This document shows, one piece after another, positions 38,864 through 63,705 of a stretch of DNA of 64,000 bases. Numbering within the stretch: position 1 is the stretch's first letter; each line of letters starts with the position of its first letter. The position numbers and the translations under genes are program-made. Source of the stretch: Candidatus Nanopelagicales bacterium (GTDB taxonomy: Bacteria; Actinomycetota; Actinomycetes; S36-B12; GCA-2699445); assembly GCA_030700225.1 (NCBI GenBank), contig JAUYJT010000030.1, forward strand, positions 453-64,452, given 5' to 3'. The notes below the pieces were generated by a model that was not told the DNA's origin, did no database searches, and worked only from the letters and a program-made list of their open reading frames with translations.

Positions 38864-38947
38864 GCTCTCCCCTTGTGTTCGGTCCGGGATCACCGTCAAG
38901 ACATCACGATGCTAGTTGCTGAGTCCAGGCGCAGCTCCGCAGGGACC

Positions 38948-43248: not shown

Positions 43249-43800
43249 CTAGCTGGGTTCTTCTCGGCTGTCTGTCGCCTTGGTCGAGAAGTAGAGGGTC
43301 TCGCAACCGGAATCAGCGTCCGACCTGCCTACATCTAGCCCAAGACCACGCCGGGGGCTCATTCCGCATGCGTCTATCAGCCTGCGCATCGCCAGGTTCC
43401 CCGCGGCAGTTCCCGCGGTCACCTCCGAGATTCGCATAGACCTCATCAGTTCATGGATCACGAGACGCCAAGCGTCGGTCCCGACTCCAGTCCCCGATCG
43501 GCGCGGGAAGACCAGAATCCCGATGTCAGCAGTCCTCGTGTCAGGATCGACGTAGGCAGTGATGGTCCCGACCAGATCCCCTGACGAACGATCTTCCACG
43601 GCCAGGAACAAGTTCGGCGTCCCGTCGAAGGACGCCAGATACCGTCGACAACTGGCTGCGTCATGACGCAGAAGGCGCTGGTCACTAAACTTCATGTGCT
43701 CTCGGTCGTTCAGAGCCCCCAGATACTCCTCGCTGATGTCCAGCACAGTGAAGTTCCTAACCCAGACACGAGGGCTTCCAACCGGCTCCCAATGCGCCAT
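43249..43800 (-). CDS. GNAT N-acetyltransferase (PseH/RimL-like)
   Basis: YLGALND, VGTITA, ADIGIL, G.G.DAW and N.AM.RL...CGM. Confidence 0.78.
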   Translation of the reverse strand: MAHWEPVGSPRVWVRNFTVLDISEEYLGALNDREHMKFSDQRLLRHDAASCRRYLASFDGTPNLFLAVEDRSSGDLVGTITAYVDPDTRTADIGILVFPRRSGTGVGTDAWRLVIHELMRSMRISEVTAGTAAGNLAMRRLIDACGMSPRRGLGLDVGRSDADSGCETLYFSTKATDSREEPS

Positions 43801-45065
43801 CAGTCAGCCCTGAGTTCATCGAGGTGGTCCCAGACTTTCGCGAAGGCCTGAGCCACGAGATCTGTCTGGTGCTCACCAAACTCGTGCGTGCACAAGCCCA
43901 GACACAGGATCTGCTCATGGAGACGCTCCGCCACAGGGCAGGGGTCAGCGCGTGAGCCGGGATCGTAAGGAAACCCCCGGCTGCCGTATGCGAGGTGTTC
44001 GACGAAGAGCGGCAAGCGGTGGATGTTCTGATAGCCCTCGAACAGGCCAGTGACGCCCTCCGCCGTGAGCGCCTCGAAAACGCGAGAGCGCGAGACCCCG
44101 AGTTCGAGAGGGTCGAGGATCAGCGGATAGATGTAGTAAACGTGTGTGTTCCCGTCATCGACATATGGGGTTTGGAGTCCACGAAGCTGGTTGAGGGTCT
44201 TCGTGAGCCTCTCAGCGGCGGCTTGCCTGCTCGCGACTTGGCCCGGAATCTTCGTCAGCTGGATTCCAGCGATTGCCGCCTCGATCTCTCCCAGCCGGAA
44301 GTTGTAGCCCATGATTCCGTGTCGTGGGACTGGCCGCACACCACGGCCTAGCAGTACCTCGCCGTGGTTGCGTATGAGCGCCATGCGCTCGGCGGCGGCG
44401 TCGTCCCCGGTGACGATCAGCCCACCCTCGCCGCAGGTAACGTGCTTGAAGTGGTTGAGGCTGTATCCCCCGATGTCGGTCATTGTCCCGGCAAGGCGCC
44501 CCCGCCTGGTCGCGAGCGGAGCCTGGGCCGTGTCACTTAGCAGTCGCAAGCCGTGATCCTCGGCGAGACGCCTTAGCGCCTCGATGTCCGCCGATTGGCC
44601 GAAGATGTCAGGCACCAAAACCGCCCGGGTCCTGGCAGTGATCCGCTGAGCTACTGACGCAGGGTCGAGGTTGAACGTCCGGCAGTCGATATCAGCGAAC
44701 ACGGGAACCGCGCTTGAGTGCAAGACGGAGGTTGCGGTTGCAGCCATTGTCCAAGGACTGGTGATGACTTCATCGCCAGGCTCCAGCCCGAGCGCACCGA
44801 CGGCGCATATGAGCCCAGACGTCCACGAGTTCACCGCTAGGCAGTGCTTCACCCCAAACAGTGCGGCGGCCTGGGCTTCGAGGGCCTTCACGCGGCGCCC
44901 ACCCATAAACCCAGGCCCGGCGTCACCCACGTAGCCTGACAGCTCGCCCGATCGAACGACGCTTGCCGCCGCGAGCGCCTCCTCTTCACCTAGTGATGAG
45001 TAGGGCGGAAACCGCTCTCCGACCACTGGGCACCCACCGAACAGAGCCAGGTCCGAAGCACCCAT
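43800..45065 (-). CDS. DegT/DnrJ/EryC1/StrS sugar aminotransferase
   Basis: VNSWTSGL, VFADID..TFNLDP, D.AQ and YSLNHFKHVTCGEGG. Confidence 0.9.
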   Translation of the reverse strand: MGASDLALFGGCPVVGERFPPYSSLGEEEALAAASVVRSGELSGYVGDAGPGFMGGRRVKALEAQAAALFGVKHCLAVNSWTSGLICAVGALGLEPGDEVITSPWTMAATATSVLHSSAVPVFADIDCRTFNLDPASVAQRITARTRAVLVPDIFGQSADIEALRRLAEDHGLRLLSDTAQAPLATRRGRLAGTMTDIGGYSLNHFKHVTCGEGGLIVTGDDAAAERMALIRNHGEVLLGRGVRPVPRHGIMGYNFRLGEIEAAIAGIQLTKIPGQVASRQAAAERLTKTLNQLRGLQTPYVDDGNTHVYYIYPLILDPLELGVSRSRVFEALTAEGVTGLFEGYQNIHRLPLFVEHLAYGSRGFPYDPGSRADPCPVAERLHEQILCLGLCTHEFGEHQTDLVAQAFAKVWDHLDELRAD

Positions 45066-46943: not shown

Positions 46944-48254
<1,311 letters not shown>

Positions 48255-48267
48255 GGTCAGAACCTCT

Positions 48268-49173
48268 CTACAGTCGCGCGCGGTCAGGCCATCGCCTGGG
48301 ATCGCGGATTCGCGTGTCGTTGATGCCGAAGCTCATCCAGTCAACGCTTCCCGCGCCACCCTCGGCGGCTCCGCACGCCTGCTCAACCTCGGATGCGGTC
48401 GTGGTTCCCACGACGATGCGGGCGATGCCGGGAACCTGGAGTGCAAAGGCCACGCACGCCTGCTGGGGAGTCATACCAGCTGCGCGGCAATTACTGTGAA
48501 ACCGGTCCTGATGAGCAGCGAGGGGCCGGAACATACCTGACAGGCGATCAGGCTCCAGCAGGATGAGCCCCTGCAAGTAGACGCTGCGCGCATGGACCTC
48601 GACACCTTCAGCAGCGAGCTCCTGTATTGGCCCTTGCGTGAGGGTCTGGTCATACACGCTGGCCGGCACTTGAACAACCTCCGGGCGGAAGGCCTGCACG
48701 GCCCTATCGATCTCCTCGCGGTCATACGCGGAGAATCCGATCCTGCGAACGAGGCCGAGTTCCCTGGCGCCGTCGAGGGCTTCGGCGATTGCATCCGCAT
48801 CGCTACTCCATAAGTCTGCGGCTCGGTGAACAAGTAGCACGTCGATGGGCTGGCGGCCCAGTCTCGCCACCGACTGCCGGATGCCAGCGTGGACAGCTGC
48901 GATCACGTCCCCGCCTAGCGGACGAAGCGAGGAGAGAGGGGCCAGCTTGGAAATAACCTGCAGCTCGCAGTGCCTGGAGAGCGGCGCGCGAAGCGCCGAC
49001 TCGGCCCCCCCGTACTCGGCTGCGGTATCGACCCAGCGAACTCCAAGCTCCACACCACGGTTGAGCACGATCGCCGCGTCCGCCTCAGACACACGGCCCT
49101 GTGCATTGGAGATGCCGTAGTCCAGCCCGAATTGAGCAGTTCCGAGCACGAGCCGCTCACAGGCACCGTTCAT
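48268..49173 (-). CDS. aldo/keto reductase
   Basis: LVLGTAQFGLDYGISN, DTAAEYG, LLVH, IGFSAY and ARSVYLQGL. Confidence 0.88.
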   Translation of the reverse strand: MNGACERLVLGTAQFGLDYGISNAQGRVSEADAAIVLNRGVELGVRWVDTAAEYGGAESALRAPLSRHCELQVISKLAPLSSLRPLGGDVIAAVHAGIRQSVARLGRQPIDVLLVHRAADLWSSDADAIAEALDGARELGLVRRIGFSAYDREEIDRAVQAFRPEVVQVPASVYDQTLTQGPIQELAAEGVEVHARSVYLQGLILLEPDRLSGMFRPLAAHQDRFHSNCRAAGMTPQQACVAFALQVPGIARIVVGTTTASEVEQACGAAEGGAGSVDWMSFGINDTRIRDPRRWPDRARL

Positions 49174-49763
49174 TCGCGTTGGCTGGCTGGATAGGTGGGG
49201 TCTGCCAGCCAGGGTGCAATCCGCCCAAGGCGGACCACGTCACACCGCTGGCCTGCGATGTCGCAGGCGTCGGCTGGCAGGAGAGCTTCTATGCGAAAGC
49301 CAGCTGCCTGGAATGCGCGGATCGATGCGACGTTCACGGAAGCAGCTCCGGCGAAGAGCTTCTCGATCCTGATCTCGGAGAAGGCGAAAGCACTCAGCGC
49401 CGCGATAGCCTCAGTTGCGAAGCCGCGACCCCAATACCCGCGGTCGCCGATCATGATCCCGACCTCTGCGCGCCGGTGCAGACTGTTGGTCGGCCCGAGC
49501 TTGATGTTGCCGATGTGGCGACCGTCCGCCACGACGGTGATTGCGCACGCCAGCGTGTTCTCGTCCGCAGTCACCCCCCGGACGTACCCGGCGACGCTGG
49601 AAAGCGTGTGGTCTCCGGACCGCGTATCCAAGTACTTGAACACGTCTGGATCGTTGAGCCAGGCTACATAGTCACTCGTCACGTGGTGCTCATCTAGTCT
49701 CAGAAGACGCAAGCGTTTGGTGCCGATGACGAGCAGCGGATCCTGAAGACTGCTCGTGTTCAC
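49170..49763 (-). CDS. GNAT N-acetyltransferase
   Basis: YVAWLNDP, HIGNIKLG, AEVGIMIGD..YWGRGFATEA and N.ASIRAF...GF. Confidence 0.85.
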   Translation of the reverse strand: MNTSSLQDPLLVIGTKRLRLLRLDEHHVTSDYVAWLNDPDVFKYLDTRSGDHTLSSVAGYVRGVTADENTLACAITVVADGRHIGNIKLGPTNSLHRRAEVGIMIGDRGYWGRGFATEAIAALSAFAFSEIRIEKLFAGAASVNVASIRAFQAAGFRIEALLPADACDIAGQRCDVVRLGRIAPWLADPTYPASQRE

Positions 49764-49845
49764 GGATGTAACCTTACGTGAGACGCATCGAGGCGGGTTC
49801 GCTGCTCAGGGGGGCACCACGCGCACACCGGGAGAGACCCAAGAG

Positions 49846-50586
49846 ATGGCATCACAGGTTCCAGCTCCCTACGGCCGTTCCGTAGGCTCCGCTGTGGCGA
49901 TCATTCCGGCGCGCGGGGGCTCGAAGCGGATACCTCGGAAGAACATCCGCATGATGTCGGGGCGTCCGCTTATCACGTGGGCTGTTGAAGCCGCGCTCGC
50001 GAGCGGGGTCTTCGATGACGTGGTGGTTACAACAGACGATGACGAGATCGCGTCGATAGCGGGTGACGCTGGCGCATCGATTCCCTTCATTCGGCCCCCC
50101 GAGCTCAGCGACGACTACACGCCGACGGTGCCGGTCATCGCGCACGCCGTGGCCGCCCTAGACCAGCTAGGCGCGAGCTACGAGTTCGCATGCTGCCTGT
50201 ACCCAGCCGCGATCTTCCTCGTTCCAGAGGACTTTGCCGCGTCGCTCGAGCTACTCAAGCGCAACCCCCGGCACAAATACGCAGCGACTGTGACACGGTA
50301 CGCGGCTCCAGTTCAGGAAGCCATGGAACTTGGCCCCGACGGGACGATCCGCTTCCTTTGGCCAGAGCACTATGGCACCCGTACGCAGGAGTTCGCGGAG
50401 CGGTGGCACGACGCGGGCCAGCTGTACTGGGGGCGACGGGAGGCCTGGACCGAACATCACTCGATCTTCGACCTTGCAGTTGGCTATTCCCTTCCCCCGT
50501 GGCGCGTCCAAGACATCGACGACGAAGATGATTGGAGGCGCGCAGAGGTAATGCACACCCTGTTCCTGATGGAGCAGCAGCGATAG
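49846..50586 (+). CDS. pseF: pseudaminic acid cytidylyltransferase (CMP-Pse synthetase)
   Basis: IIPARGGSKRIPRKNI, RP.ELSDD.TPT, CLYP, HDAGQLYWG and VQDID..DDW.RAE. Confidence 0.9.
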   Translation: MASQVPAPYGRSVGSAVAIIPARGGSKRIPRKNIRMMSGRPLITWAVEAALASGVFDDVVVTTDDDEIASIAGDAGASIPFIRPPELSDDYTPTVPVIAHAVAALDQLGASYEFACCLYPAAIFLVPEDFAASLELLKRNPRHKYAATVTRYAAPVQEAMELGPDGTIRFLWPEHYGTRTQEFAERWHDAGQLYWGRREAWTEHHSIFDLAVGYSLPPWRVQDIDDEDDWRRAEVMHTLFLMEQQR

Positions 50587-50589: not shown

Positions 50590-51495
50590 TCACAACGGGA
50601 CAGCAATCCCGACCGGCAGCGTAGTTTCAACCCCGGCGCGACGCGCCAGCGTGTACGTTGGCAGCCCGCAGTGGGACGCAAGGTACAACGCATATGAGTT
50701 GAAGCCGACGACGGCGTCCGCCCACGCAAACTGCTCCGCCAGCGGGGAATCGCGGGCGGACGCAACAGAAACGGTGCTCGGCCATTCCGCCCGGATTGAG
50801 TCATACTTGTCGTCCGCCTCGATCGGGTGCAGTCGCAAAGCGATGTGGACGTTAGAGGCGCCAGGGTTGAGGGGACCAAGCACGTCAGGCAACCGCGCTA
50901 GCACCGAGCGCTCTGGCCCGTGCCCGCCCCCAGCGGCAAGCGGCTCGGCGATGACCAGGACGCGCCAGGCCCCGGCTGGATCGCGCGCCTGGCGGAGTGA
51001 CGCCGTCGCGGACCCGATGTCGTCCGCCAGAGTGTTCGGCCACTCAAGGACCGCCACTCCAGGAAGAGAACTCCCGGCGATCTCGCGCGCGTAGGGGTCC
51101 GTCACGATCACAGCGTCGGGCAAGTCCAGCGGATCCGGGCCGAATCGGACTCTGTAGTTCACCCAGTGGTCGAGCACTGAGAGCACCAGCCGATCGGCTC
51201 GACGCGCGGCGCGCACCGAGTCCGCCAGTTGCGGCGTCCACCCCGACCCAACGAGCAGCCATTCGCACGCATCGATCACGGAGGCTGCGTCTTGGAACTG
51301 CCTCAGCTCACCTGCGGCAGGAATACCCCGTGCCCATCCCGTCGAGAAGACGCCAACCACATCAGTCAGGTGCGGCAACCACGCCACGACGTGAGCAGCA
51401 CTGCCGGCATCAGCGATCACGATCCCGCAGTCACCCAGCCGACCCGCTTCTGCTGGGGACGGAACATGGTTCAGGTCCTCAACGAGGGAGCTCAT
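50590..51495 (-). CDS. uncharacterised glycan-cluster protein, GT-B-like
   Basis: VLDHWVNY..RF, RLHP.E and WAD.VVG.NS.ALY.A. Translationally coupled (TGATG) to the amidotransferase operon. Confidence 0.7.
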   Translation of the reverse strand: MSSLVEDLNHVPSPAEAGRLGDCGIVIADAGSAAHVVAWLPHLTDVVGVFSTGWARGIPAAGELRQFQDAASVIDACEWLLVGSGWTPQLADSVRAARRADRLVLSVLDHWVNYRVRFGPDPLDLPDAVIVTDPYAREIAGSSLPGVAVLEWPNTLADDIGSATASLRQARDPAGAWRVLVIAEPLAAGGGHGPERSVLARLPDVLGPLNPGASNVHIALRLHPIEADDKYDSIRAEWPSTVSVASARDSPLAEQFAWADAVVGFNSYALYLASHCGLPTYTLARRAGVETTLPVGIAVPL

Positions 51496-52754
51496 CAGTA
51501 GGGGTAACCGCGGCCGACTGTGATGAAGCGGTCGGCCCTGTCGAGATTGAGGCTCGAAGTCGGCTCGTCGCCGATCCATGCCGACTCGTCGACCGAAGCA
51601 TCGCCCAGCTCTGCGCTCCACCCTTGGAAGCTCCAATCACGCAAGTCTCTGGCGCGCCACGACTTCGGGCTGCGGAAGCGATCGGCAACGAGCCATAGGG
51701 CGGAAGTCTGAGCACCGAGCCAATCCGCGAGTAGATCCATGTGCGGAGGCGCTACGAATTCGTACTTGCGAACGAGGGCGATGGCGGACTGGCGGCTAAG
51801 GCGCTTGTGGCGGATTTCGCGACATGCATGGTCCAGGACGCGCGAGTATCCGCGCTTGCACATCTTCAACCAATCGTGGAATCCGCCGTAGACATACGAC
51901 TCAACGTGATCGTAGGCATCGAATGTTCGTGCCAGCCGGGCCGACTTGAAGCCCCTTTCTCGCACCATGAACCTGTGCTGGGCGGTCGGATCCCACCTGA
52001 CGAAGTTGCTCAGGTAGATACCTCGCACCCCGATGCGGTGGAGCTCCCGATCCTCCGGATACCGGAACTGCCAGACATCCTGGTCTCTCAGGTCACTGAA
52101 TGACTGGAGCAGGTCGCCGGCCTCGTGGCCCATGAGGTCGTGCTCTTTCCGATACCGCCGACTCATCTCGACATTGTCGAGGTGGGAGTACATCCCCACT
52201 TGTTCAACACCCTGGTGCGGGCCCCAGATGATGAGGGGAATGTTCATCCGAACGGCGGTCTGGACCGGGAACACCGTGTGGCCGGCGAGCGCTTGCCAGT
52301 AGACACTCCCCAGTTGTTTGAGCGTCTGCCGCGTCAGGCGCTTGACGCTGACCGGGTTGACGTGCTGAGTGAGCATATCTACATCGAAACGGTCGCGGAG
52401 GTGAGCGAGATTCCGAATGCCAAGCGGGGTGTTGTAGTAGGTGTTGTAGCTGACGACCAATGGGTTCATCTGAAGCCGCTCCCGAACCAGATGGATCAGG
52501 AAGTACGAATCGTACGCGCCTGTGACAGGGACGATGCAGTCGTAGGTTGCGCCGGAAGGGCTCCTGTAGGGCTTGACCAGGAGTTCCAACTCCCGCCAGC
52601 GCTCACCCCAGTCCAAGAAATCCTTCTCTTCGTGCACGCGGCAGCCCGAACAGACTCCCTCGGAATCGAACGTAATCCCGAGCGGGTGGTCGCTCCCGTA
52701 CAGGCATCGGGTGCAAAACGTTCGGCCAGTCATTCCGGTACCGTCGCTTCCCAT
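51495..52754 (-). CDS. N-acetyl sugar amidotransferase (WbuX/PseA/WbpG-like), variant PP-loop
   Basis: CTRC....HPLGITFD..GVC.GC, DCIVPVTGAYDS, WDP..QH and WLK..KRGY....DHAC.EIRH. Confidence 0.85.
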   Translation of the reverse strand: MGSDGTGMTGRTFCTRCLYGSDHPLGITFDSEGVCSGCRVHEEKDFLDWGERWRELELLVKPYRSPSGATYDCIVPVTGAYDSYFLIHLVRERLQMNPLVVSYNTYYNTPLGIRNLAHLRDRFDVDMLTQHVNPVSVKRLTRQTLKQLGSVYWQALAGHTVFPVQTAVRMNIPLIIWGPHQGVEQVGMYSHLDNVEMSRRYRKEHDLMGHEAGDLLQSFSDLRDQDVWQFRYPEDRELHRIGVRGIYLSNFVRWDPTAQHRFMVRERGFKSARLARTFDAYDHVESYVYGGFHDWLKMCKRGYSRVLDHACREIRHKRLSRQSAIALVRKYEFVAPPHMDLLADWLGAQTSALWLVADRFRSPKSWRARDLRDWSFQGWSAELGDASVDESAWIGDEPTSSLNLDRADRFITVGRGYPY

Positions 52755-53497
52755 GGGCGGACAGGTGTCGTGAGCCGCAGCTTCACTGAGGGAACCGCCA
52801 GCTCGGTGTGGTGAAGGAAGTTGCCGATGGCAACGCCCATGACGCGATCATGACGGATCACACGGTCAGCCAACTCAGGATCGCCTATCCCCCCAGTCGC
52901 GATCAGGTTGACTGCGGGGATCTTGGGCAGCGCCTTCTCAAGCCGCTCCAGGCTGAAGCCTCCGTGCATTCCGTCCCCCGCGACATCTTGATAGAGGATC
53001 TCGCCGCCCCATCCGGATGGCAGTGCCGCAGATAGGTCGGCGACCGGGCGGGTTGCTCCGGAGGTCGGTTCAAGCCAGGCGAGAGTGTCGCCATCTTCGA
53101 CGACGGGCGCACTCAAGACGACAGCCTGGTCACCGAGAGCGTCGGACACGTCAGCCACCAGGCGTGGGTTGGCCAGCACGCCGCGGCCCAACACGACTCT
53201 CTCCGCCCCAGCACGGGCCACCGCGACCGCATCGGCACGCGACATTAGTCCCCCGCCGAAGGTCAGTGGCGTGGAGAGCGTGTGCTCCACAAGATCCGAG
53301 ATCATGTCCAGTGCCGACCATTCGCCTCGGGGTCGTCGCGAAATGTCGAGCAGGCAGATCTCGTCAACTTGCCAACGCTGGAGCTCCTCCACGATGAACC
53401 GCGGACGACCGACGGGCAGCCAACGCGAGAACTGGTAGCTGTTGACCACCCAGCCATTCCGAACCGTGACCAGCCCAATGATCCGCTTGAGCGCCAT
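52730..53497 (-). CDS. HisF-like cyclase-fold subunit (WbuZ-like)
   Basis: KRII, VDEI..LDIS, PLTFGGG, DV..DG...GF and A.GG.G. Confidence 0.8.
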   Translation of the reverse strand: MALKRIIGLVTVRNGWVVNSYQFSRWLPVGRPRFIVEELQRWQVDEICLLDISRRPRGEWSALDMISDLVEHTLSTPLTFGGGLMSRADAVAVARAGAERVVLGRGVLANPRLVADVSDALGDQAVVLSAPVVEDGDTLAWLEPTSGATRPVADLSAALPSGWGGEILYQDVAGDGMHGGFSLERLEKALPKIPAVNLIATGGIGDPELADRVIRHDRVMGVAIGNFLHHTELAVPSVKLRLTTPVRPWEATVPE

Positions 53498-54129
53498 CAC
53501 TCATCAAGACCGCTCTGCCCGGAAAAGAGGCGTTGAAGGAATCGGGCTCCCGCTATCTGGCTCTTCTCTGGATGAAACTGTACGCCGATGAGATTCTGGC
53601 TTCGGACAAGAGCTGGCGTTCTTTGCTCGTCCACTGTCTCAAGTTCGATGACTTCGGCATCATCGGGAACCACCTGGAAGTTGTGGTTGAAGAACACGCA
53701 CGAGCCAGCCAGTTCCGTCGCGCGCTGAACACGAGCGTGTCTAACCCGGACCGGCACGTCGACGGTCTGCCATCCAATCCTCGGGGTCCGGCTTTCCAGG
53801 GGCTGCACGCTTCCCCGTATGAGTCCAAGGCCCCGCGTGGACTCGTGTTCGCTGGATTCGTCGAACATCAGCTGGAGTCCAAGGCACACTCCGAGGAGCG
53901 GCTTGCCCGTAGCGCTGAATCTCGTGATTGCTTCGTCCAAACCCCTAGAACGCAGTACCTGCATGGCCGGCGGGAACGCCCCTACACCTGGCAGGATAAG
54001 CCAATCGGCTGTCTCGATTCTTTCAGGTGAGGCAGCTGCCATAACGCTCACGCCCGCCCTCTCCAGGGCCCGAGCTAGACCGTCGAGGTTCCCGAGCCCG
54101 AAATCGACCAGAACCGCTGCCTTCCTCAT
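53497..54129 (-). CDS. HisH-like glutamine amidotransferase (WbuY-like)
   Basis: DFGLGNL, LILPGVGAF, LGVCLG.Q and GVQFHPEKS (Cys-His-Glu triad). Confidence 0.88.
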   Translation of the reverse strand: MRKAAVLVDFGLGNLDGLARALERAGVSVMAAASPERIETADWLILPGVGAFPPAMQVLRSRGLDEAITRFSATGKPLLGVCLGLQLMFDESSEHESTRGLGLIRGSVQPLESRTPRIGWQTVDVPVRVRHARVQRATELAGSCVFFNHNFQVVPDDAEVIELETVDEQRTPALVRSQNLIGVQFHPEKSQIAGARFLQRLFSGQSGLDE

Positions 54130-54130
54130 G

Positions 54131-55255
54131 TCAATGGCCCACAACAAAGCGGGGACAAGGTCGGCCCGACGGCGGCACCTCGAACAAGTCAGCGTTCGTG
54201 TTGGCGCGTACCTGTTCCCAGAAGTCGGCAATGTCGATGTCGATAAAGTCACAGAACTGCTCGATGTAGTCATCGCTGCAGGCACCGTCGTACGTCGCGA
54301 CGATTTCGCAGGCGTCATCCCGCGTGATGCGACCTTGTCTGATTTCCTCATTCATGTAATCGGTCGCCCGTCCGAAGCCGAACTTGTAGTACTTGATCAT
54401 CTGGTTGAGGGTTACCCAATCCTCATCGAGCGCCGTAACTCCGAACAGGTCACCGGTGTTCTCCGGACCATCGTCGCGGAATTCGAGCCCGTTCAGACCC
54501 GACACGATCGCGTTGTTCACCAATGACCAATCACCCAGGGCCCAGCCCATGTAGAAGAGCTCGATATTCGCGTCTTCGAATTCCTGGAGTGATGGATATC
54601 GATACGAGATGAGCTGGTCGTCCGTGAAGCCCGCATCTCGCAGCCAGGCGTCCGCCCCTCCAGAGAGGGTGTTGGCGTTGCGCAGATTGCTTCCGTCGTA
54701 CCCAGTCTGGCCAAGGGTTCCCATGTCTCCAAGTTGCAGCGCTGGGTTCTCCCCCCAGAGGATCAACGAAATGCCGTAGTCGATCGCCAGTCGAGGTACG
54801 CCGCTGAACAGGGCCAGCTCTGTCGACCTGGCCCAATTCGTGAACTTCGCGAATGACACCTTCATCATCTGCCGCCAGGTTTCTGGCGCAGGGTTGATGC
54901 TGACCACATCGAAGCCCAGATCGATGAGATTCCCGAGATTCTCGGCTCCCCGGTCGGAGAGCTGTCGCGGCGGATACCCGACGCAAACCAGCAGTGGCTG
55001 GAGCTCCAGCTTATCGCGGACCCAGAGGGACTGCCGCGTACTGTCCTTGCCGCCGCTGACGCCCACGATGCAGTCGAATCCGCTCTTGCCTCGTCGCCTG
55101 TGCGGCGCGATGGCGGCCTGAAGCTCCTCACGCCGAGCGTTCCAATCCACCTTGCCGAGGCTCACCGAATAAGTGCATGCTGGACAGACGCCGTCCGGGC
55201 CAAACTCGATGGCCGGGCGGGTATCGGGCTGGAGGCAGCGCAGGCAATACCTCAT
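54131..55255 (-). CDS. N-acetyl sugar amidotransferase (WbuX/PseA-like)
   Basis: MRYCLRC..PDTRP, DCIVGVSGGKDS, WGEN and KYYKFGFGRATD....EIR.G.ITR. Confidence 0.9.
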   Translation of the reverse strand: MRYCLRCLQPDTRPAIEFGPDGVCPACTYSVSLGKVDWNARREELQAAIAPHRRRGKSGFDCIVGVSGGKDSTRQSLWVRDKLELQPLLVCVGYPPRQLSDRGAENLGNLIDLGFDVVSINPAPETWRQMMKVSFAKFTNWARSTELALFSGVPRLAIDYGISLILWGENPALQLGDMGTLGQTGYDGSNLRNANTLSGGADAWLRDAGFTDDQLISYRYPSLQEFEDANIELFYMGWALGDWSLVNNAIVSGLNGLEFRDDGPENTGDLFGVTALDEDWVTLNQMIKYYKFGFGRATDYMNEEIRQGRITRDDACEIVATYDGACSDDYIEQFCDFIDIDIADFWEQVRANTNADLFEVPPSGRPCPRFVVGH

Positions 55256-55634: not shown

Positions 55635-56645
55635 CTACCCGATCGCGATCATGCCCGGCCGCACCCGCACCAGACGCTGCAAATCCTGACGCGTTCGCAG
55701 GCTGGGCCACCCGAGCGCGTCGGCGAGCTCCGCTCGGTGGTCGTGCGGGTCAGCGCCAGGCTTCTGCATCCACGGGTGTTCCTGATAGAGGCAGCCGCCA
55801 GCGCACTCCTGTCCGTGTTCCCTGTCGCAATCGGTCTCCCGGTGCCCTTCATCGAAGGAGAGTCCGGGAATCACCTGTACGAGCTTCCCAAGCGAAGCCG
55901 CATAGATGAGGGCTGTCGACACCGCATCCGCAATGACCAAGTCGTGAGCCTCAATCAGCGCCAACACGTTTGGGAGCACCCTCGTACGGTCTCCTGCTGT
56001 GGAGCCTGGCGCGTGACTCGTCCCCCGGTATCCGGCGCACTCGACTGCGAAACCGTGAGACTCGAAGCCCAGGCGTGTTTCGCGGCATAGGAAGTCCTGC
56101 CAAGCCAAACAGACAGTCGTCCTGGATGGATCGAAGAGATCAGCCACCTTGCGCGGCATGGACGCGAACGTGATGACGTCATCTTCGCAGGAATGTACGG
56201 GGAAGAGCAGGGTCCTGCCACTGCCAGCCAACGAGTTGTTGGCCTGCACTGAGCCAGTCTCCCAAATCGTGGATCGGTTCCTCATCCGCAGGAGATAGAG
56301 CCAGGGAGCGCCAATCGCGATGACTTTGCGGGCGCCCGCCGCACGCGCTGACTGAACCCATGCCTCATTCCACATCCATTGGGGCAGCTCCCGGGCTATC
56401 GGGTCCAGCACCTTGCGTTGGGGGATCGTCTCCGCGCGCGTCCATCCACCGTGTGGGATACGCCCGAGGATCAGGCATGACATGTCGTAACCAGCGGCCT
56501 GGAGAATCAGCTCGCGGTGGCCATAAGCGAACTGTTCACTGTAGCAATCGATACGCGCGTCGCCTTGGCCGAACAAATACGTCGCGGCGCGAACCGCCCC
56601 TGCCGTGCTCACGCGGCGCCCTGCAATGGTCAACCGAGCACCCAA
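55635..56645 (-). CDS. uncharacterised glycan-cluster protein
   Basis: YGHR, HG.W, IGAPWLY, LFP.HS, LH/WQD-like segment and STALIYAA.LG, suggesting a GT-B-like fold. Confidence 0.6.
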   Translation of the reverse strand: MGARLTIAGRRVSTAGAVRAATYLFGQGDARIDCYSEQFAYGHRELILQAAGYDMSCLILGRIPHGGWTRAETIPQRKVLDPIARELPQWMWNEAWVQSARAAGARKVIAIGAPWLYLLRMRNRSTIWETGSVQANNSLAGSGRTLLFPVHSCEDDVITFASMPRKVADLFDPSRTTVCLAWQDFLCRETRLGFESHGFAVECAGYRGTSHAPGSTAGDRTRVLPNVLALIEAHDLVIADAVSTALIYAASLGKLVQVIPGLSFDEGHRETDCDREHGQECAGGCLYQEHPWMQKPGADPHDHRAELADALGWPSLRTRQDLQRLVRVRPGMIAIG

Positions 56646-56797
56646 TGGACAGCTCCTGATTCTAGACCGTTTGATTGGTGCAAGATCCTACCTGCGGTCG
56701 ATGCGATGCGGTCTCGATCGTGAGGTCGGCCCTTGTCCGCGAGTGTAGCCAAGGCTTCGTCCGAGCGTGGATCGGCTCGACGGTATGCTTGGGCGCC

Positions 56798-57628
56798 ATG
56801 GCAACGCTCAAGTCGATCAGGAACAAGATCGTCGACAATAGGCCCGCCCAGGCAGCACTCAGGAAGGCGTCTCGAGCACGGGTCATCCCGCCGCGCGTCT
56901 ACGAGAAGATCCCGCCGCTCGGCAGCCACCCCGTCATCACACCGGAGGGGAACACAATCGCCTATGTTGCCGACCTGAGCGACATGATGGCGCGGCAAGT
57001 CGTGTGGGGGAATCTCCAGGTCTGGGAAGCCACCAGTCTCCAGATCTTCTCCAAGCTTGCCCGATCCTCGGTACGCTTCCTGGACGTCGGAGCCTACACG
57101 GGGATCTACAGCCTTATCGCTTGCGCTGACGGCCCAGGCGAGGCTATCGCGTTTGAGCCGAATCCAGCCGTCCGACCACTTCTTGCGAGGAACATCAGGG
57201 CCAACAACTTCGATCACCGAGTGACGGTTATCCCAAAGGCCGCATCGGATACCCCTGGCACCGCCACCATGACCATCCCGTTCGACACCACCGCTGCCAG
57301 GCTGGATGCAAGCGGAACCGGGCCGTGCGTCGAAGTCACAACAGTCGACGACGTACTGGCTGGCAGAAGAGTGGACATAATGAAGATTGACGTAGAACGG
57401 CTGGAGCCGCAGGTGCTGAAGGGGGCTGCCAACTCGCTCTCGCAGTACCATCCGGCGCTCATTATCGAATGCCTAGACCAGGAATCGTTCGTTGCGGTCG
57501 ATGAGCTCGTTCGCGGCTTCGGCTACGACAACTGCCAGCACCTTGGTCAACGCGGGGTCGCGTCGACCACGTCCTTCGTCGAAGAGCCAGCATTCGCCAA
57601 CTTCCTCTGGCAAACCACTCACAGGTAG
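56798..57628 (+). CDS. FkbM family methyltransferase
   Basis: FLDVGAYTGIYS, AFEPNP and VDIMKIDVE..E..VL.GA. Confidence 0.88.
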   Translation: MATLKSIRNKIVDNRPAQAALRKASRARVIPPRVYEKIPPLGSHPVITPEGNTIAYVADLSDMMARQVVWGNLQVWEATSLQIFSKLARSSVRFLDVGAYTGIYSLIACADGPGEAIAFEPNPAVRPLLARNIRANNFDHRVTVIPKAASDTPGTATMTIPFDTTAARLDASGTGPCVEVTTVDDVLAGRRVDIMKIDVERLEPQVLKGAANSLSQYHPALIIECLDQESFVAVDELVRGFGYDNCQHLGQRGVASTTSFVEEPAFANFLWQTTHR

Positions 57629-57693: not shown

Positions 57694-58467
57694 CTAAGGC
57701 CGATTCGCGCGCATGACCCCAGGTTTCTCAGCGAGTAACGAAACCAGAAGACCGGCGATCGATTCGTGGCCCACCGCACTCAAGTGCGCTCCATCCCGCG
57801 CGAAGTCGGCGGGCGATAGGACCGCTCCCGGGTCCAGGACGGCAACCCGGCCTGCGGCACGACGGGCCAAGTCGCAAGCAGCCGACCTATTGCTTGCCAA
57901 GGCCCCGGGACTCCATGGATAGGTCGCCATCCGATGGAACTGGGGCAAGAGCAGAATGAGCTGGGCATCAGTTTCAGCTTCAAGGCGATCGACCAGCACG
58001 CTCAGATTTTCGCGATACAGCTGGGGCGCCATGAACGGTCGGATTCGGAGAGCTTCGGAGACCCGGTCGCCCAGTGCGCTTCCGGCGACTCGCAAGTAGG
58101 AACGGTAAACCGCACGCCGAGCCCACTGGATCACGCGGAGAAGCCAGCTCCGGTCAGTCACGGGCAGCTCACCATCTGGATGAACACGAAACCTTCGCAG
58201 CGCACGCGGGAACATCAGCATCGCCTCACGCGTCCCGTGGGCGAGAACAACGACGTCCGGCACAAGTGCTTTGACCTCGCTCAATCGGTCAAGGGTGACG
58301 GTGACCATTGCCCCACCGAATACCAGCGCCTCGACTTCCCAACCGACAGGGCCAAGACGAGAACGCGCGATCTCCGGGTATGGATGAGCGCCAACAGCTG
58401 GGTCAATGCCGAACGTTGTAGCGATCGAGTCACCGCAGATTACGAGTCGATTCGGTCGGCCATCCAC
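57694..58467 (-). CDS. SGNH/GDSL hydrolase-fold protein (possible O-acyl esterase or transferase)
   Basis: Block I GDS near the N-terminus and DGAH (DxxH) near the C-terminus. Confidence 0.7.
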   Translation of the reverse strand: MDGRPNRLVICGDSIATTFGIDPAVGAHPYPEIARSRLGPVGWEVEALVFGGAMVTVTLDRLSEVKALVPDVVVLAHGTREAMLMFPRALRRFRVHPDGELPVTDRSWLLRVIQWARRAVYRSYLRVAGSALGDRVSEALRIRPFMAPQLYRENLSVLVDRLEAETDAQLILLLPQFHRMATYPWSPGALASNRSAACDLARRAAGRVAVLDPGAVLSPADFARDGAHLSAVGHESIAGLLVSLLAEKPGVMRANRP

Positions 58468-58612: not shown

Positions 58613-59374
58613 TCAGGATCGACTGCCATGGATGGAATCCCGGGAATCCTGGTCATCGTCTCGGCAAAGGACGGCATCGAACTGCAGCATCACCCCTGTC
58701 GAGCTGTCACAGAACCCGGGTTCGAGGCCGCGCAACCGATAACCTTCGGCCTCCAACCACTCAATAGCCTCCTGCCAATCCCACGCCCCCGCGTATAGCG
58801 GCTCCACTGAGAGCTCTAGCTGAACTGCGACGATTCGGTTCAGCAGCCTTCCGCAACCCGCAAGAACCTGGCGCTCATATCCTTGGACGTCAATCTTCAA
58901 CACTGGCCTGTTGAGGACAAGTTCTCCTGCCGCGACGATCGAATCGAGCCTTCGAACCCTAACGCTCTCCCGTTTGACAACTTTCGCGTCGGGAGCCGCC
59001 TCCACATGGCGGTCCAGCATGTCCACCAGCGAACTGCTCGCGCCCGCGTTCGCCGTGACGTTCAGGTCGGCCGAGCCGTCAAAATCTCCGAGCGCCTCGC
59101 CGCGCACATTCCACTTCTCATCTGTCTCTGCCGAGAGCACGAGATCGCGGCGCGCGGCCTCCCCGGGTTCGAACGACACGATGTCGCCTCCGTACCCGAA
59201 ACTCCTCAGAGTCCGGGCGAATCCACCGTTGTTGGCACCGATGTCGAGCACCATGCCCGGACGGGCCGAGAGCAGCGCGCGGAACAGCACATTGCCTTGC
59301 GTGTCCTGCGGGAACCTGCCTACCTCGAGCCCAACCTTCCGCAAGCGACTCCTCAATCTGGACTTGACTGACAC
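58613..59374 (-). CDS. FkbM family methyltransferase
   Basis: VLDIGANNG.F, SFEP, LKIDVQGYE..VL.G and QFDA. Confidence 0.9.
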   Translation of the reverse strand: MSVKSRLRSRLRKVGLEVGRFPQDTQGNVLFRALLSARPGMVLDIGANNGGFARTLRSFGYGGDIVSFEPGEAARRDLVLSAETDEKWNVRGEALGDFDGSADLNVTANAGASSSLVDMLDRHVEAAPDAKVVKRESVRVRRLDSIVAAGELVLNRPVLKIDVQGYERQVLAGCGRLLNRIVAVQLELSVEPLYAGAWDWQEAIEWLEAEGYRLRGLEPGFCDSSTGVMLQFDAVLCRDDDQDSRDSIHGSRS

Positions 59375-59560: not shown

Positions 59561-60700
59561 GTGATTCCTTACGGACGTCAGTCAGTAGACGAAGAAGACG
59601 TTGCGGCTGTCTCGTCAGTCCTGCGCAGCGCCTGGCTGACGACTGGACCCGCAGTCGAGGAGTTCGAATCCGAGCTCGCACGGCAAGTCGGCGCCGCGCA
59701 ATGTGTATCCGTGACATCAGGCACGGCGGCGCTCCACTGCGCGTACACCGCAGGAGCCATCGGTCCGGGCGATGAGGTAATCACGCCACCCCTAACGTTT
59801 GTTGCCACGCAGGCCGCAGCAGCTGCGCTCGGCGCCAAGATCAAGTTCGCAGACGTTGAGCCTGATACCGGAAACATCGACCCAGCAGCCGCCGCCGCAC
59901 TCGTTACTCCGCAGACCCGAGCGATCGTTGCAGTCGACTACGCCGGCCATCCGGCGGAGCTCGATGACCTGCGGTCCATCGCCCGCGAGCATGGAATCCT
60001 TCTCATAGAGGACGCAGCACATTCGATCGGATCCTGCTATCGCGGTCGGCCCGTCGGGTCGATCGCGGACCTCACGACGTTCTCGTTCTTCCCGACCAAG
60101 AACATCACAACGGGGGAGGGAGGTGCGGTCGCTACGGCTGATCCGACGCTCGCCCAGCGAGCGAGGTTGTTCCGGAATCACGGCCTGGTGCGGGACTCCA
60201 AGGCTCAGCGCTACCCAGACGAAGGACCATGGCATCAGGAGGTGCATGATTTCGGCCTCAACTACCGGCTGCCGGACATTCTCGCGGCCCTGGGCCTGAG
60301 CCAACTGGACCGCATGGCCGAGTTCAAGAGGCGCCGCGCGGAGATCTTCGGGCTCTACGCGGCGCTGCTCGGCGGCATTGACGACCTAGCTCTCCCGACG
60401 GTTCGGGACCATGTCGACCCAATGTGGCATCTCTTTCCGCTCAGAGTCCCGGCCAGCGAGCGCGCCCGAATCTTCCAAAGTCTGCGTAAGCGTGGCATCG
60501 GCGTGCAAGTGAACTACATGCCTGCGTACTGGCATCCGGTATTCGAGGATCTCGGCTACAAACGTGGGACGTGCCCCAACGCTGAGGCGTACTACCGGGA
60601 GGAGATCTCGCTCCCAATGTTCCCGGGTCTTCGTGATGACGAAGTGCACCGGGTGGCCGACGCTGTCGTCAGCAGCCTAGGAAGACCGGGCGCGTCATGA
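59561..60700 (+). CDS. pseC: UDP-4-amino-4,6-dideoxy-N-acetyl-beta-L-altrosamine transaminase
   Basis: IPYGRQS..EED, LTTGP, DAAHS.G, FSFFPTKNITTGEGG, G.NYRLPD, GVQV.Y.P and ISLPMFP. Confidence 0.85.
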   Translation: MIPYGRQSVDEEDVAAVSSVLRSAWLTTGPAVEEFESELARQVGAAQCVSVTSGTAALHCAYTAGAIGPGDEVITPPLTFVATQAAAAALGAKIKFADVEPDTGNIDPAAAAALVTPQTRAIVAVDYAGHPAELDDLRSIAREHGILLIEDAAHSIGSCYRGRPVGSIADLTTFSFFPTKNITTGEGGAVATADPTLAQRARLFRNHGLVRDSKAQRYPDEGPWHQEVHDFGLNYRLPDILAALGLSQLDRMAEFKRRRAEIFGLYAALLGGIDDLALPTVRDHVDPMWHLFPLRVPASERARIFQSLRKRGIGVQVNYMPAYWHPVFEDLGYKRGTCPNAEAYYREEISLPMFPGLRDDEVHRVADAVVSSLGRPGAS

Positions 60701-61479
60701 GCAAGCCTAGGCAGCGCATCGCGGTCTTCGCAAACAACCGGCTCGGTTTGCGCGTGGTCCGTCATCTCGCCGCTGACCCAGGCACCGAGATCCGCTTGTT
60801 GGTGCTCAATAGCAGACGCCGGGCGTTTGCCAGCGAGATTGCTGAAGCGGCAGGCGCGCATCATCCAGAGGTCTGGGCCGGAGACGAATTGGGCGATCCC
60901 GGCAAGACTGACCAACTCACAAGCATGGGCCTTGACTTCGGCGTTTCCGTATACTTCGGTCATCTGCTCTCGCGCGGCTCCATCCGTGCCTTCCAGAGGG
61001 GCGTCCTGAACCTTCATCCCGCGCTTCTCCCCTTCAACCGCGGTTCGCACCCCGCAGTGTGGGCGATATGGGACGGGACTCCGAATGGGGTGAGCATCCA
61101 CGTCATCGACGAGGGCATCGACACGGGACCAGTCGTAGCTCAGGTGCCCGTTCGCGTCCGCCCGACTGACACGGCTGGCTCGCTCTACCTAAGGAACGAA
61201 GATCGGCTCTTCGATCTGTTCGCCGAGACCTATCCCGCATGGTGCGAAGGCCGAGTGCGGAATGCGAGGGTTTCAGGAGCTGGCAGCTACCACCGGCTCG
61301 CGGATTTCGATCAAGTTGCTAGGGTCACGATGGATGAAGCCACAACCGTTGGGGACTTGATACGGCGGATGCGTGCCGCGACATTTGACGTCGGTGGCGG
61401 GCTGATAATCACTGGGGATCACGGGTGTCGGTATCGGGCCCGGATCTCTATCGCCGAGGAAGAGGATCCGGATGAGTGA
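60697..61479 (+). CDS. sugar N-formyltransferase (N10-formyl-THF dependent)
   Basis: NLHPALLPFNRG.HP, GVSIH.ID..IDTGP, and a short C-terminal domain like VioF/Rv3404c-type formyltransferases. ATGA overlap with pseC. Confidence 0.82.
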   Translation: MSKPRQRIAVFANNRLGLRVVRHLAADPGTEIRLLVLNSRRRAFASEIAEAAGAHHPEVWAGDELGDPGKTDQLTSMGLDFGVSVYFGHLLSRGSIRAFQRGVLNLHPALLPFNRGSHPAVWAIWDGTPNGVSIHVIDEGIDTGPVVAQVPVRVRPTDTAGSLYLRNEDRLFDLFAETYPAWCEGRVRNARVSGAGSYHRLADFDQVARVTMDEATTVGDLIRRMRAATFDVGGGLIITGDHGCRYRARISIAEEEDPDE

Positions 61480-62563
61480 AATAGGGCGTCGGCAAACCAC
61501 CGAAACCGAGGACCCGCCCCTCATCGTTGCCGAGATTTCTGCCAACCACAACGGAAGCAAGAAGTGCTTCCTGGACTTGATCAGGGCAGCCGCAGACAGC
61601 GGAGCTGATCTGGTCAAGTTCCAGACCTACACCGCCGACACGATGACTCTGCCCCTAGACACGCCCCGGTTCCGGATAAGTGATGACCATGGCCTCTGGG
61701 GTGGCATGCGCCTGTACGACCTCTACGAGGCAGCTCACACACCCTGGGAATGGCACGCGGAAGGATTCGAGTTGGCCCGAAGCCTCGGGATCGACGCCTT
61801 CAGTTCGCCATTTGACAAGACCGCGATCGACTTCCTCGAACAATTCGGCCCTTTCGCGTACAAGATCGCATCGATGGAGATCTCTGATCTGCCACTTATC
61901 TCCTACGCCGCCGGACTGGGTAAGCCAATCGTCATCTCCTCCGGAACGGCCCACACCTCCGAAGTCGCAAGGGCAGTCGAAGTTGCCAGATCGGCTGGCT
62001 CACGCGACATCACGCTGCTCCTGTGCACGAGCTCCTATCCAGCGTCACCAGAAGATGCGAATCTGGTCACGCTTGAGGCATGGCGCGAGGCGTTCGGCGT
62101 CAAGACGGGCCTTTCCGACCACACACTCGGACTCGGCACTTCAATTGCCGCAGTCGCCCTGGGCGCGCGCCTGATCGAGCGTCACGTCACAATCTCCAGA
62201 GCAGAGGGCGGCTTCGACAGTGCCTTCTCACTCGAGCCTCATGAACTGGCGCAGTTGGTATCCGAGTGCCGTGACGCCTGGCTGGCCCTCGGATCTGTGC
62301 GCACCGGGCCTACGAAGTCCGAGTCCGAGTCTCTGCGCCTACGGAGGTCGCTCAACGTCGCAGCCGACGTTAGGGCTGGAGATGCTGTGACCGACTCGGT
62401 TGTGCGCGCTGTTAGGCCTGGTGGAGGGCTCGGGCCTGGTTCCTTGGCCGACATCTTGGGTAGGCGTTTCGCCGTCGATGTTTCTGCGGGTACGCCGATG
62501 TCCTGGGATCTCCTATCCCCCAGGGACAGCGGCCCCGTGCCTCAGATGGACGCGGCTACCTGA
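61472..62563 (+). CDS. pseI: pseudaminic acid synthase (NeuB family)
   Basis: IVAEISANHNGS, VKFQTYT.DT, LY..A.TP.EWH, KIAS.E, C.SSYP, GLSDHTLG, IERH and C-terminal SAF domain. Confidence 0.92.
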   Translation: MSEIGRRQTTETEDPPLIVAEISANHNGSKKCFLDLIRAAADSGADLVKFQTYTADTMTLPLDTPRFRISDDHGLWGGMRLYDLYEAAHTPWEWHAEGFELARSLGIDAFSSPFDKTAIDFLEQFGPFAYKIASMEISDLPLISYAAGLGKPIVISSGTAHTSEVARAVEVARSAGSRDITLLLCTSSYPASPEDANLVTLEAWREAFGVKTGLSDHTLGLGTSIAAVALGARLIERHVTISRAEGGFDSAFSLEPHELAQLVSECRDAWLALGSVRTGPTKSESESLRLRRSLNVAADVRAGDAVTDSVVRAVRPGGGLGPGSLADILGRRFAVDVSAGTPMSWDLLSPRDSGPVPQMDAAT

Positions 62564-63705
62564 GCGCTGAAGGCGTCAGCAACTCGTTCACGCCCGGCAC
62601 CGTCAACGACCCCATACGCGGCGTTGGCCAGGCGATCTCGAAGCTTACCGTTCGAGATGAAGTGCGCAATGCGCTCCGCTAGTGGCCCGAGCTCCGGCTT
62701 GGATCCAGAGTAGTCACCAAGGCCGAAGACCACGCCCGCTGAAGCCAAGGCAGCGTAGGCACCGACCTGATTGTCTGCCAGGGCGAGAGAAGCAGCGGGC
62801 TTCCCGAGACAGCAGATCTCCCAAAGCGTCGTCCCCGCAGCGCTTATCACAGCGTCGGCGCTGGCCAGAAGTGCAGGGAAGTCGAGATCCGGCTCCACGC
62901 ATTCGACTCTCACTGAGCCTGTCTGGACGACGTGCCCAGAGATCTGATCGGATCCGGGAGAAACGACGAGCGCGTCGACGCCCATGTCGCATGCCATGAC
63001 GGCATCAACGACGTGCTTGGTAAGACCTGCGGCGTCGGTTCCACCCAGAGAGATCACGACGCGGGAGGCAGACTCGGCGCACGAAACGTTGGCAGGGCGC
63101 AGCGAGCGAACCGCGTCGGCAACGATCGCGAAGTCCGTGCCGGCCAGCACTTGAGCTAGGGGTTCGGGTACCTCCGGCCACGGCCATGACCGTGCCTCGG
63201 CGCCGAAATTCTGATCGACATACAGGGAGGCAGACTGGCCCCGCGCGGAACCGTCAACGAAAGCCAGAACCGGGACCCGACGAAGGATGGATGCTGAGAC
63301 ATCACTGGGCAGGCTGTACGAGTCGATCACGACCGCATCAAGCTCGGAGCTGCGCATCCATGCCAGGTGATCCGCAGCCGACACCAACCCCGCCACGACC
63401 CGGCAACTCAGCTGCCTGAGCCTGGATCGCGCAAGCGGCACGGCCTCAGCGCTACAGGCAAACTCAACATGCCAGCCCCGAGATATCAGCTCCTCCGCCA
63501 TGCTGGCGCTCCGAAAGGCGTGCCCGACACCGACGTGCGGTCCGACATCGCAGATGACGCCAGCTCTCCCGGCGAAGTGCCCAACCCGCGTGGTCAACCG
63601 GCCCTCCTGGCAACTCCGAGTCGGCCTCAACGCTACCCTGCCGCTCCTCTCGACCCGCGACACCCTGGTAATGCCGTTCCGTGATTGATTTGGCCCGCTG
63701 CTCAA
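62542..63705 (-). CDS. pseG: UDP-2,4-diacylamido-2,4,6-trideoxy-beta-L-altropyranose hydrolase
   Basis: D.G..VG.GH..R, VVIDSY, VDQN, SLGGTD, ISAAGTTLWE, ADNQ and VDG.G..RV. True start probably near 63597. Confidence 0.8.
   Translation of the reverse strand: MSSGPNQSRNGITRVSRVERSGRVALRPTRSCQEGRLTTRVGHFAGRAGVICDVGPHVGVGHAFRSASMAEELISRGWHVEFACSAEAVPLARSRLRQLSCRVVAGLVSAADHLAWMRSSELDAVVIDSYSLPSDVSASILRRVPVLAFVDGSARGQSASLYVDQNFGAEARSWPWPEVPEPLAQVLAGTDFAIVADAVRSLRPANVSCAESASRVVISLGGTDAAGLTKHVVDAVMACDMGVDALVVSPGSDQISGHVVQTGSVRVECVEPDLDFPALLASADAVISAAGTTLWEICCLGKPAASLALADNQVGAYAALASAGVVFGLGDYSGSKPELGPLAERIAHFISNGKLRDRLANAAYGVVDGAGRERVADAFSAQVAASI

Follow-up and report, generated by a model that had tools for sequence, protein, structure and literature searches.

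Pseudaminic acids (Pse) are sugars of cell surfaces and flagella. The N-acyl groups that they carry decide their antigenicity and how phages, antibodies, and lectins recognize them. In their biosynthesis, PseC introduces an amine at C4 that ends up as N7 of the finished Pse. The locus described here raises the question of which acyl group this amine receives when a formyltransferase gene lies where pseH is expected. The locus is part of a stretch of 64,000 nucleotides (hereafter the window) from the actinobacterium Candidatus Nanopelagicales bacterium (GenBank assembly GCA_030700225.1, contig JAUYJT010000030.1, positions 453 to 64,452 of the forward strand), and its center is a three-gene unit of pseC, a formyltransferase gene that we call fmt, and pseI. 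The host is uncultured and of freshwater type. Its RpoB shares 88% identity with that of a "Candidatus Nanopelagicales" metagenome-assembled genome, and every other named RpoB match comes from the Actinomycetota. The gene content and comparisons presented below make it quite probable that the fmt product is a formyltransferase that replaces PseH and that the cell makes CMP-Pse5Ac7Fo. An earlier note, made from the DNA letters of this unit, had predicted a 7-formamido Pse. The chemistry on which it relied, the conversion of the PseC amine to N7, is right by established pathway knowledge, and the predicted product is well supported by the catalytic residues, the fold of 4-N sugar formyltransferases, the linkage to pseG and pseI in many phyla, and the equivalent operon slot in a relative, G060.

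The formyltransferase gene is coupled to pseC and pseI

The three genes of the unit are:

59561-60700, plus strand: pseC, UDP-4-amino-4,6-dideoxy-N-acetyl-beta-L-altrosamine transaminase (TIGR03588, 424.9 bits against a cut-off of 423.5; PF01041, E = 6e-121)
60697-61479, plus strand: fmt, long-form sugar N-formyltransferase of 260 amino acids (aa) (PF00551, E = 4e-23), predicted UDP-4-amino-4,6-dideoxy-L-AltNAc 4-N-formyltransferase
61472-62563, plus strand: pseI, pseudaminic acid synthase (TIGR03586, 421 bits against a cut-off of 340.25; PF03102 and a SAF domain)

Reading the junctions bore out the translational coupling proposed earlier. The ATG of fmt at 60697 overlaps the TGA of pseC as ATGA, and the ATG of pseI at 61472 overlaps the fmt stop codon as ATGAGTGA. 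These overlaps argue for co-translation of fmt with both neighbors, and a consensus scan of the three genes on the plus strand gave no promoter-like or terminator-like sites beyond chance. The fmt open reading frame (ORF) is intact, carries PF00551, and occupies the slot between pseC and pseI that would be expected for pseH, as had been claimed. The longest pseC ORF begins at 59504; the PseC profile match starts at about residue 21 of this longer ORF, that is, at about VIPYGRQ, which is the N-terminus given by a GTG at 59561 with GGGGAA upstream, and we regard this GTG as the likely start of pseC.

The remaining pse genes are found elsewhere in the window:

37880-38899, minus strand: pseB, inverting UDP-GlcNAc 4,6-dehydratase (TIGR03589, 479.9 bits against a cut-off of 407.75)
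49756-50586, plus strand: pseF, CMP-pseudaminic acid synthetase (TIGR03584, 263.7 bits against a cut-off of 205.7)
62542-63705, minus strand: pseG-like UDP-sugar hydrolase (TIGR03590, 126 bits, below the cut-off of 153.55)

The family match of PseF begins at residue 47, and the true start of pseF is probably near 49890. The pseG-like gene is convergent with pseI, and the 3′ ends of the two overlap by 22 nucleotides. A search for PseH (TIGR03585, cut-off 93.1 bits) across the 2.6-Mb genome found nothing above the cut-off, the best score being 24 bits for a GNAT protein encoded at 49170-49763. The gene set is that of a PseJ-type pathway, with PseB, PseC, PseI, and PseF above their cut-offs, a PseG-like protein below its own, a linked fmt, and no PseH above its cut-off.

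We propose the following route. The fmt product would formylate the C4 amine of the PseC product, UDP-4-amino-4,6-dideoxy-beta-L-AltNAc, using N10-formyl-tetrahydrofolate (N10-formyl-THF), a reaction that would stand in for the normally acetyl-CoA-dependent PseH step. PseG would then remove UDP, PseI would condense the resulting 2-acetamido-4-formamido sugar with phosphoenolpyruvate, and PseF would activate the product to CMP-Pse5Ac7Fo, which may be further modified by amidotransferases and an aminotransferase/GNAT module. We infer the substrate and the product, as well as the tolerance of the downstream enzymes for a formyl group.

The fmt product is predicted to be a competent sugar N-formyltransferase

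Proteins were placed in the Formyl_trans_N superfamily by the presence of PF00551, an Asn-His-Asp triad, and an HxSLLPxxRG-type folate motif. The 260-aa window protein has all three, scoring 82.5 bits on PF00551 (cut-off 26.1). Asn105, His107, and Asp142, which correspond to the catalytic triad of the superfamily, are invariant across 15 long-form homologs (250-266 aa) in a family alignment, as are L111-P112-x-N114-R115-G116 of the folate motif, which reads HPALLPFNRG in the window protein. An AlphaFold2 model of the protein has a mean predicted local distance difference test score (pLDDT) of 92.4 and a predicted TM-score (pTM) of 0.89. The top Foldseek matches of this model are WbtJ (4nv1), a Shewanella enzyme (6v2t), a P. 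congelans enzyme (6v33), Rv3404c (4pzu), and VioF (4yfv), with TM-scores normalized to the query (TMq) of 0.79-0.84. The best of these is WbtJ, with a TMq of 0.84 and a target-normalized score (TMt) of 0.90 over 252 columns. The modeled architecture is that of WbtJ, VioF, and Rv3404c, in which a Rossmann-like core is joined to a small C-terminal dimerization domain.

A sequence search of the PDB with the catalytic core gave the LgrA F domain first (1.2e-24, residues 78-223) and then PseJ (1e-21). The C-terminal domain family PF18216 was not reported for the window protein at E ≤ 0.001, and it was recorded for the homologs P0002-P0012. On the equivalog model for dTDP-4-amino-4,6-dideoxyglucose formyltransferase, NF005755, the protein scored 90.5 bits against a cut-off of 238, and over residues 103-252 only. 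The invariant residues, the confident model, and its structural matches predict a catalytically competent sugar N-formyltransferase.

Long-form relatives recur beside pseG and pseI

A scan of one genome per species returned 280 relatives of the window formyltransferase, and the context counts that follow cover the best 80. In most of these (64 of 80), pseI and/or pseG lies no more than 3.5 kb away, commonly in the order pseB-pseC-...-pseG-fmt-pseI, and a pseG homolog stands directly upstream of fmt in 60 of the 80 loci. The relatives in pse context span over 20 phyla of bacteria and 2 of archaea. One locus has a contiguous pseB-pseC-pseF-pseG-fmt-pseI operon (L039), and three have contiguous pseB-C-G-fmt-I (L011, L050, and L051), with no space for another acyl transferase. 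PseH was above its cut-off in none of the five genomes with such compact fmt operons when each was searched genome-wide. One other actinobacterial genome, from the Solirubrobacterales, has the pseG-fmt-pseI arrangement (L014). In a large protein collection, the nearest homologs are metagenomic, are 41-45% identical to the window protein, and occur in settings of the type pseG-fmt-pseI-HisH-HisF. On the four contigs inspected (P0002, P0003, P0004, and P0007), each is directly upstream of pseI, and at the P0004 and P0007 loci HisH and HisF come next, giving a gene content that resembles that of the window.

In the phylogeny of the family, short PseJ-like proteins separate from all long forms (approximate likelihood-ratio test, SH-aLRT, 99). 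Among the long forms, the clades outside pse context, such as one from the Streptosporangiaceae and one adjacent to PglC-like genes, appear as offshoots of a mostly pse-linked radiation. The window protein sits on a long terminal branch of 1.4-1.46 changes per column.

These two offshoots have gene neighborhoods of their own. The first is a tight Streptosporangiaceae clade of long forms that occur without pseI (L009, L024, L025, L029, L032, L038, and L047). Its hosts are cultured Streptosporangium, Planomonospora, Microtetraspora, and Sphaerisporangium, and its fmt genes adjoin a DegT-type aminotransferase or a short-chain dehydrogenase/reductase (SDR) dehydratase. These members probably belong to formylated 4-amino-6-deoxyhexose pathways, which could be tested in culturable actinomycetes. 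The second clade includes L074:5887-6777, L059:5836-6768, and the relatives L069, L071, and L075. Here the neighbors are a PglC-like Bac_transf phosphoglycosyl transferase, GT4 glycosyltransferases, and a GNAT, pointing to another glycan whose reducing end may carry a formylated sugar of the bacillosamine type.

In a syntenic relative, an acyltransferase lies between pseC and pseI

Within the order to which the window's host belongs, no close ortholog of the window formyltransferase was found in 200 genomes, the best match being 73 bits. Nearly all of the matches in these genomes are proteins of about 200 aa or about 310 aa, which were taken as the housekeeping enzymes PurN and Fmt. PseI was above its cut-off in 11 of 201 genomes of the order and in none of 15 from the same family, which suggests that the pse cluster is sporadic in this order. 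The cluster was possibly gained by horizontal acquisition.

One genome of the order, G060 (locus L128), has a homologous cluster, in which PseB is 66%, PseC 62%, PseI 54%, and both WbuX proteins about 50% identical to their window counterparts. It also shares HisH, HisF, a second DegT aminotransferase (DegT2), and a GFO oxidoreductase with the window. The G060 operon reads pseB-pseC-X-pseI-pseF, where X lies exactly between pseC and pseI:

L128:11779-12357, minus strand: X, 192-aa hexapeptide-repeat (left-handed beta-helix, LbH) acyltransferase of the NeuD/PglB/VioB type

In the window's genome this hexapeptide acyltransferase has no homolog (best score 19.6 bits). One operon position is thus filled by an acetyltransferase-type enzyme in G060 and by a formyltransferase in the window, which argues that fmt caps the PseC amine. 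We consider this the strongest single argument for the proposed function. Since most PseI-bearing genomes of the order lack a TIGR03585 hit, "PseH" enzymes that are not GNATs may be common in this group.

Weighing the alternatives

Several points weigh against replacement of PseH by the fmt product. The PseC score exceeds the TIGR03588 cut-off by just 1.4 bits, and the PseG-like score falls short of its own cut-off. No database entry is more than 45% identical to the window protein, and we found no long-form member that is biochemically characterized. A quick free tree joins the protein to the L074/L059 clade, which is outside pse context (SH-aLRT 95). The window encodes two GNATs, one of which is weakly PseH-like and of the Acetyltransf_3 type, and related GNATs directly follow pseC in three of the fmt loci (L036, L054, and L070). 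Finally, the absence of a PseH hit is weak evidence because relatives use other acyltransferases, with TIGR03585 above its cut-off in just one of ten PseI-bearing relatives of the order. We set aside the argument that fmt replaces PseH because no PseH was detected, and relied instead on the syntenic G060 slot and the minimal operons.

The GNAT genes and their neighbors in the window are:

46944-48254, minus strand: class III aminotransferase (PF00202)
48268-49173, minus strand: aldo/keto reductase (PF00248)
49170-49763, minus strand: GNAT of the Acetyltransf_3 type (PF13302), the main rival candidate for PseH
43800-45065: second DegT aminotransferase, with a neighboring GNAT at 43249-43800

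Were one of these GNATs (49170-49763, or else 43249-43800) the real PseH, the product would be Pse5Ac7Ac, and fmt would acylate another amine, for example one made with the class III aminotransferase, or would give a minor second product. We regard this as unlikely, and we retain it because a GNAT directly follows pseC in the three loci named above. The GNAT at 49170-49763 is also 26% identical to the true PseH of a relative, G167, and clusters that combine an aminotransferase, a GNAT, and fmt could require two N-acyl transferases. Against this, its 24 bits on the PseH model are far from the 93.1 required, the GNAT at 43249-43800 has no hit to that model, and neither matched a PseH structure in a PDB sequence search at E ≤ 0.01, where the best matches of the former were AAC(6′) and SpeG. 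Homologs of the 49170-49763 GNAT occur in 14 of the 80 fmt loci, four of them paired with a DegT2-type aminotransferase and the other ten all with a class III aminotransferase. None of these ten reaches the PseH cut-off (28-62 bits), and for seven of them the SpeG model gives a higher score than the PseH model. No such GNAT is present within 6 kb at the remaining 54 of the 64 fmt loci in pse context, and in the minimal pse operons fmt is the sole acyl transferase. In the window itself, this GNAT belongs to a different operon, some 10 kb distant, and it is fmt that is coupled to pseC and pseI.

Because its homologs track the class III aminotransferase and fall below the PseH cut-off, this GNAT seems to belong, together with the aminotransferase and the aldo/keto reductase, to a conserved accessory module that is apart from any PseH role. 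Homologs of the class III aminotransferase are present in 21 of the 80 fmt loci. In many of these they are 47-57% identical to the window protein, often directly upstream of pseG (for example L007, L018, L028, L053, and L056), and at several loci the homolog forms the C-terminal part of an ORF of 665-1047 aa.

A second alternative is that fmt serves another amino sugar of the glycan locus, which covers about 47 kb, such as the product of the second DegT aminotransferase or a bacillosamine-type UDP-sugar, and that its position between pseC and pseI is coincidental. The long-form clades outside pse context, in the Streptosporangiaceae and the L074/L059 group, would fit such a role, as would the quick free tree, in which the window protein falls with the L074/L059 proteins. 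A better tree was found, however. When the window protein was constrained to group with its pse-context relatives, the log-likelihood was 44.7 better, and this tree was not rejected (approximately unbiased test, p-AU 0.867). We did not accept the placement with the clade outside pse context because the constrained tree is better and both branches are long, and the position of the window protein in the long-form family is compatible with the pse-linked group. Its highest identities are likewise to pse-context proteins. The start and stop codon overlaps, which argue for co-translation with pseC and pseI, and the acyltransferase in the same slot of syntenic G060 also speak against coincidence, and the second DegT gene has an adjacent GNAT of its own. 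Taken with these points, service to another sugar appears quite improbable.

That the protein is inactive in formyl transfer, being a folate-binding relic or an enzyme for another acyl donor, we find hardly credible: its long terminal branch and the missing PF18216 report would fit such a history, but every catalytic and folate-motif residue is kept, the confident full-length model superposes on active enzymes over about 252 columns, and the ORF is intact and coupled to its neighbors.

Comparison with characterized systems

The closest functional precedent for a PseH replacement by formylation is PseJ of Anoxybacillus kamchatkensis (PDB 6ci2, 6ci4, 6ci5, and 6edk), which reportedly formylates UDP-4-amino-4,6-dideoxy-L-AltNAc in vitro. 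PseJ belongs to the same superfamily as the window protein and has the same triad, and it occupies the same position in a pse cluster without PseH, with the same reaction and product, Pse5Ac7Fo, predicted for fmt. The two differ in size and host. PseJ has 192 aa and comes from a member of the Bacillota, whereas the window protein has 260 aa, being extended by about 38 residues at the N-terminus and by a beta-hairpin/helix domain at the C-terminus, and comes from an actinobacterium. The window protein also lies in a separate clade, outside the PseJ orthologous group. A close PseJ ortholog from a metagenome (P0052, 189 aa, 9e-65) adjoins pseI and pseG; pseF and a gene for a flagellin glycosyltransferase of the Maf type follow at a distance of a few kb. 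P0052 and the window protein share 35% identity over 135 residues, which belong to the core only. This short form is part of a flagellin-glycosylation (Maf) island, in contrast to fmt, which is part of a large cell-surface glycan locus. According to PMC11040635, which cites Reimer et al. 2018 (ACS Chem Biol 13:3161), the work on PseJ made the known biosynthetic route to Pse5Ac7Fo complete. The enzyme class is already characterized through this 2018 route, a point absent from the earlier note.

The statement that N7-formyl Pse is known in Pseudomonas holds, since Pse5Ac7Fo is documented in Pseudomonas aeruginosa (PMC11040635). A reference listed in PMC7281560 also places it in Pseudoalteromonas distincta. 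The literature searched, which covered the field incompletely, mentioned N7-formyl Pse for no actinobacterium. PseI of C. jejuni makes Pse5Ac7Fm (PMC13576459), and PseF takes Pse5Ac7Fo as a substrate, its kinetics being similar to those with Pse5Ac7Ac (PMC11040635). With these PseI and PseF enzymes of other species, tolerance of a 7-formamido group downstream of the formylation step is documented.

Other characterized enzymes resemble the window protein in part. WbtJ (4nv1), Rv3404c (4pzu/5vyq), VioF (4yfv), and the Shewanella and P. congelans enzymes (6v2t and 6v33) share its two-domain architecture (E about 1e-21), and all of them formylate the C4 amine of a 4-amino-4,6-dideoxyhexose nucleotide, as predicted for fmt. 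These dTDP-4-amino-4,6-dideoxyglucose 4-N-formyltransferases are just 17-23% identical to it in sequence, however, and fmt is coupled to no dTDP-sugar genes, its neighbors instead making a UDP-linked L-altro sugar. The LgrA F domain, the best PDB match by sequence, has the same catalytic core but is a tailoring domain of a nonribosomal peptide synthetase (NRPS) that formylates valine on a carrier protein, and the window has no NRPS context. PseH (GNAT, TIGR03585) and the G060 hexapeptide acyltransferase would act at the same step as fmt, capping the C4 amine before PseG and PseI, and the latter shares its operon slot. Their folds are unrelated to that of the window protein, and they would use acetyl-CoA to give an N7 acetyl group, as opposed to N10-formyl-THF and an N7 formyl group for fmt. 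What sets this case apart is a long, WbtJ/VioF-like lineage outside the PseJ orthologous group, an actinobacterial host, and an evident swap with a hexapeptide acyltransferase.

Amidotransferases and other genes of the glycan locus

A block of four genes in the window is a candidate for an amidino modification:

54131-55255, minus strand: WbuX-type N-acetyl-sugar amidotransferase (TIGR03573)
53497-54351, minus strand: HisH-like (TIGR01855, 164 bits)
52730-53500, minus strand: HisF-like (PF00977)
51495-52754, minus strand: second WbuX-type amidotransferase (TIGR03573; the two WbuX score 249 and 290 bits, cut-off 203)

The two WbuX genes flank a single HisH/HisF pair (51495-55255), and this four-gene block is kept in G060 (L128:6428-10090). 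Other fmt-type pse clusters repeatedly have one WbuX homolog next to the pse genes, accompanied by HisH and in some cases also by HisF. A homolog of the second WbuX with HisH follows pseI in L007, L018, L028, L040, and L061, and is upstream of pseG in L027. Since the block is kept in G060 and WbuX/HisH recurs beside pse genes elsewhere, an amidino modification, acetamidino or other, is plausible on the N5-acetyl group, which would give the Pse5Am7Fo suggested in the earlier note, on the formyl group, or on another sugar. That two amidotransferases share one ammonia-supplying pair suggests two different amidino targets.

Divergent from pseC are two further genes:

58613-59374, minus strand: FkbM-family methyltransferase
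57694-58467, minus strand: GDSL-like acylhydrolase

Their products may O-methylate, or O-acetylate or deacetylate, the same glycan. The glycan locus also contains ORFs of 185-348 aa without Pfam matches, all on the minus strand (55635-57451, 50590-51636, 33726-34733, and 42476-43033). Searches of NCBIfam with 55635-56645, 56630-57451, and 50590-51636 gave no match. A homolog of the 50590-51636 product is fused to a GNAT in G060 (L128:5095-6435), and unannotated proteins of 322-335 aa adjoin pseF in the contigs of P0002, P0003, and P0007. An unannotated ORF of this kind is a candidate for a pseudaminyl transferase or a modifier.

Implications

A broader picture can be drawn, which we offer tentatively and would not expect to hold in full. 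The long forms could be separate from PseJ by descent and could be the principal means by which environmental bacteria and archaea make N7-formyl Pse, and one of them could have displaced a hexapeptide acetyltransferase in situ in this actinobacterial lineage. With the WbuX pair and the aminotransferase/reductase/GNAT module, the locus might then direct an undescribed nonulosonic acid, for instance 7-formamido-5-acetamidino Pse or a further aminated derivative.

The chemistry of N7-formyl Pse is itself already known, and the gain is in this respect incremental. If replacement of PseH by the fmt product is correct, 7-N-formyl Pse would extend to planktonic actinobacteria, and the widespread long-form family, found beside pseG/pseI in more than 20 phyla, would be the usual environmental counterpart of the sole characterized enzyme, PseJ. 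At least some long-form members carry the Joint Genome Institute (JGI) label "methionyl-tRNA formyltransferase", an annotation that the finding would help to correct. The pair formed by the window and G060 provides a clean natural experiment, in which a formyltransferase and an acetyltransferase occupy the same slot of otherwise homologous clusters.

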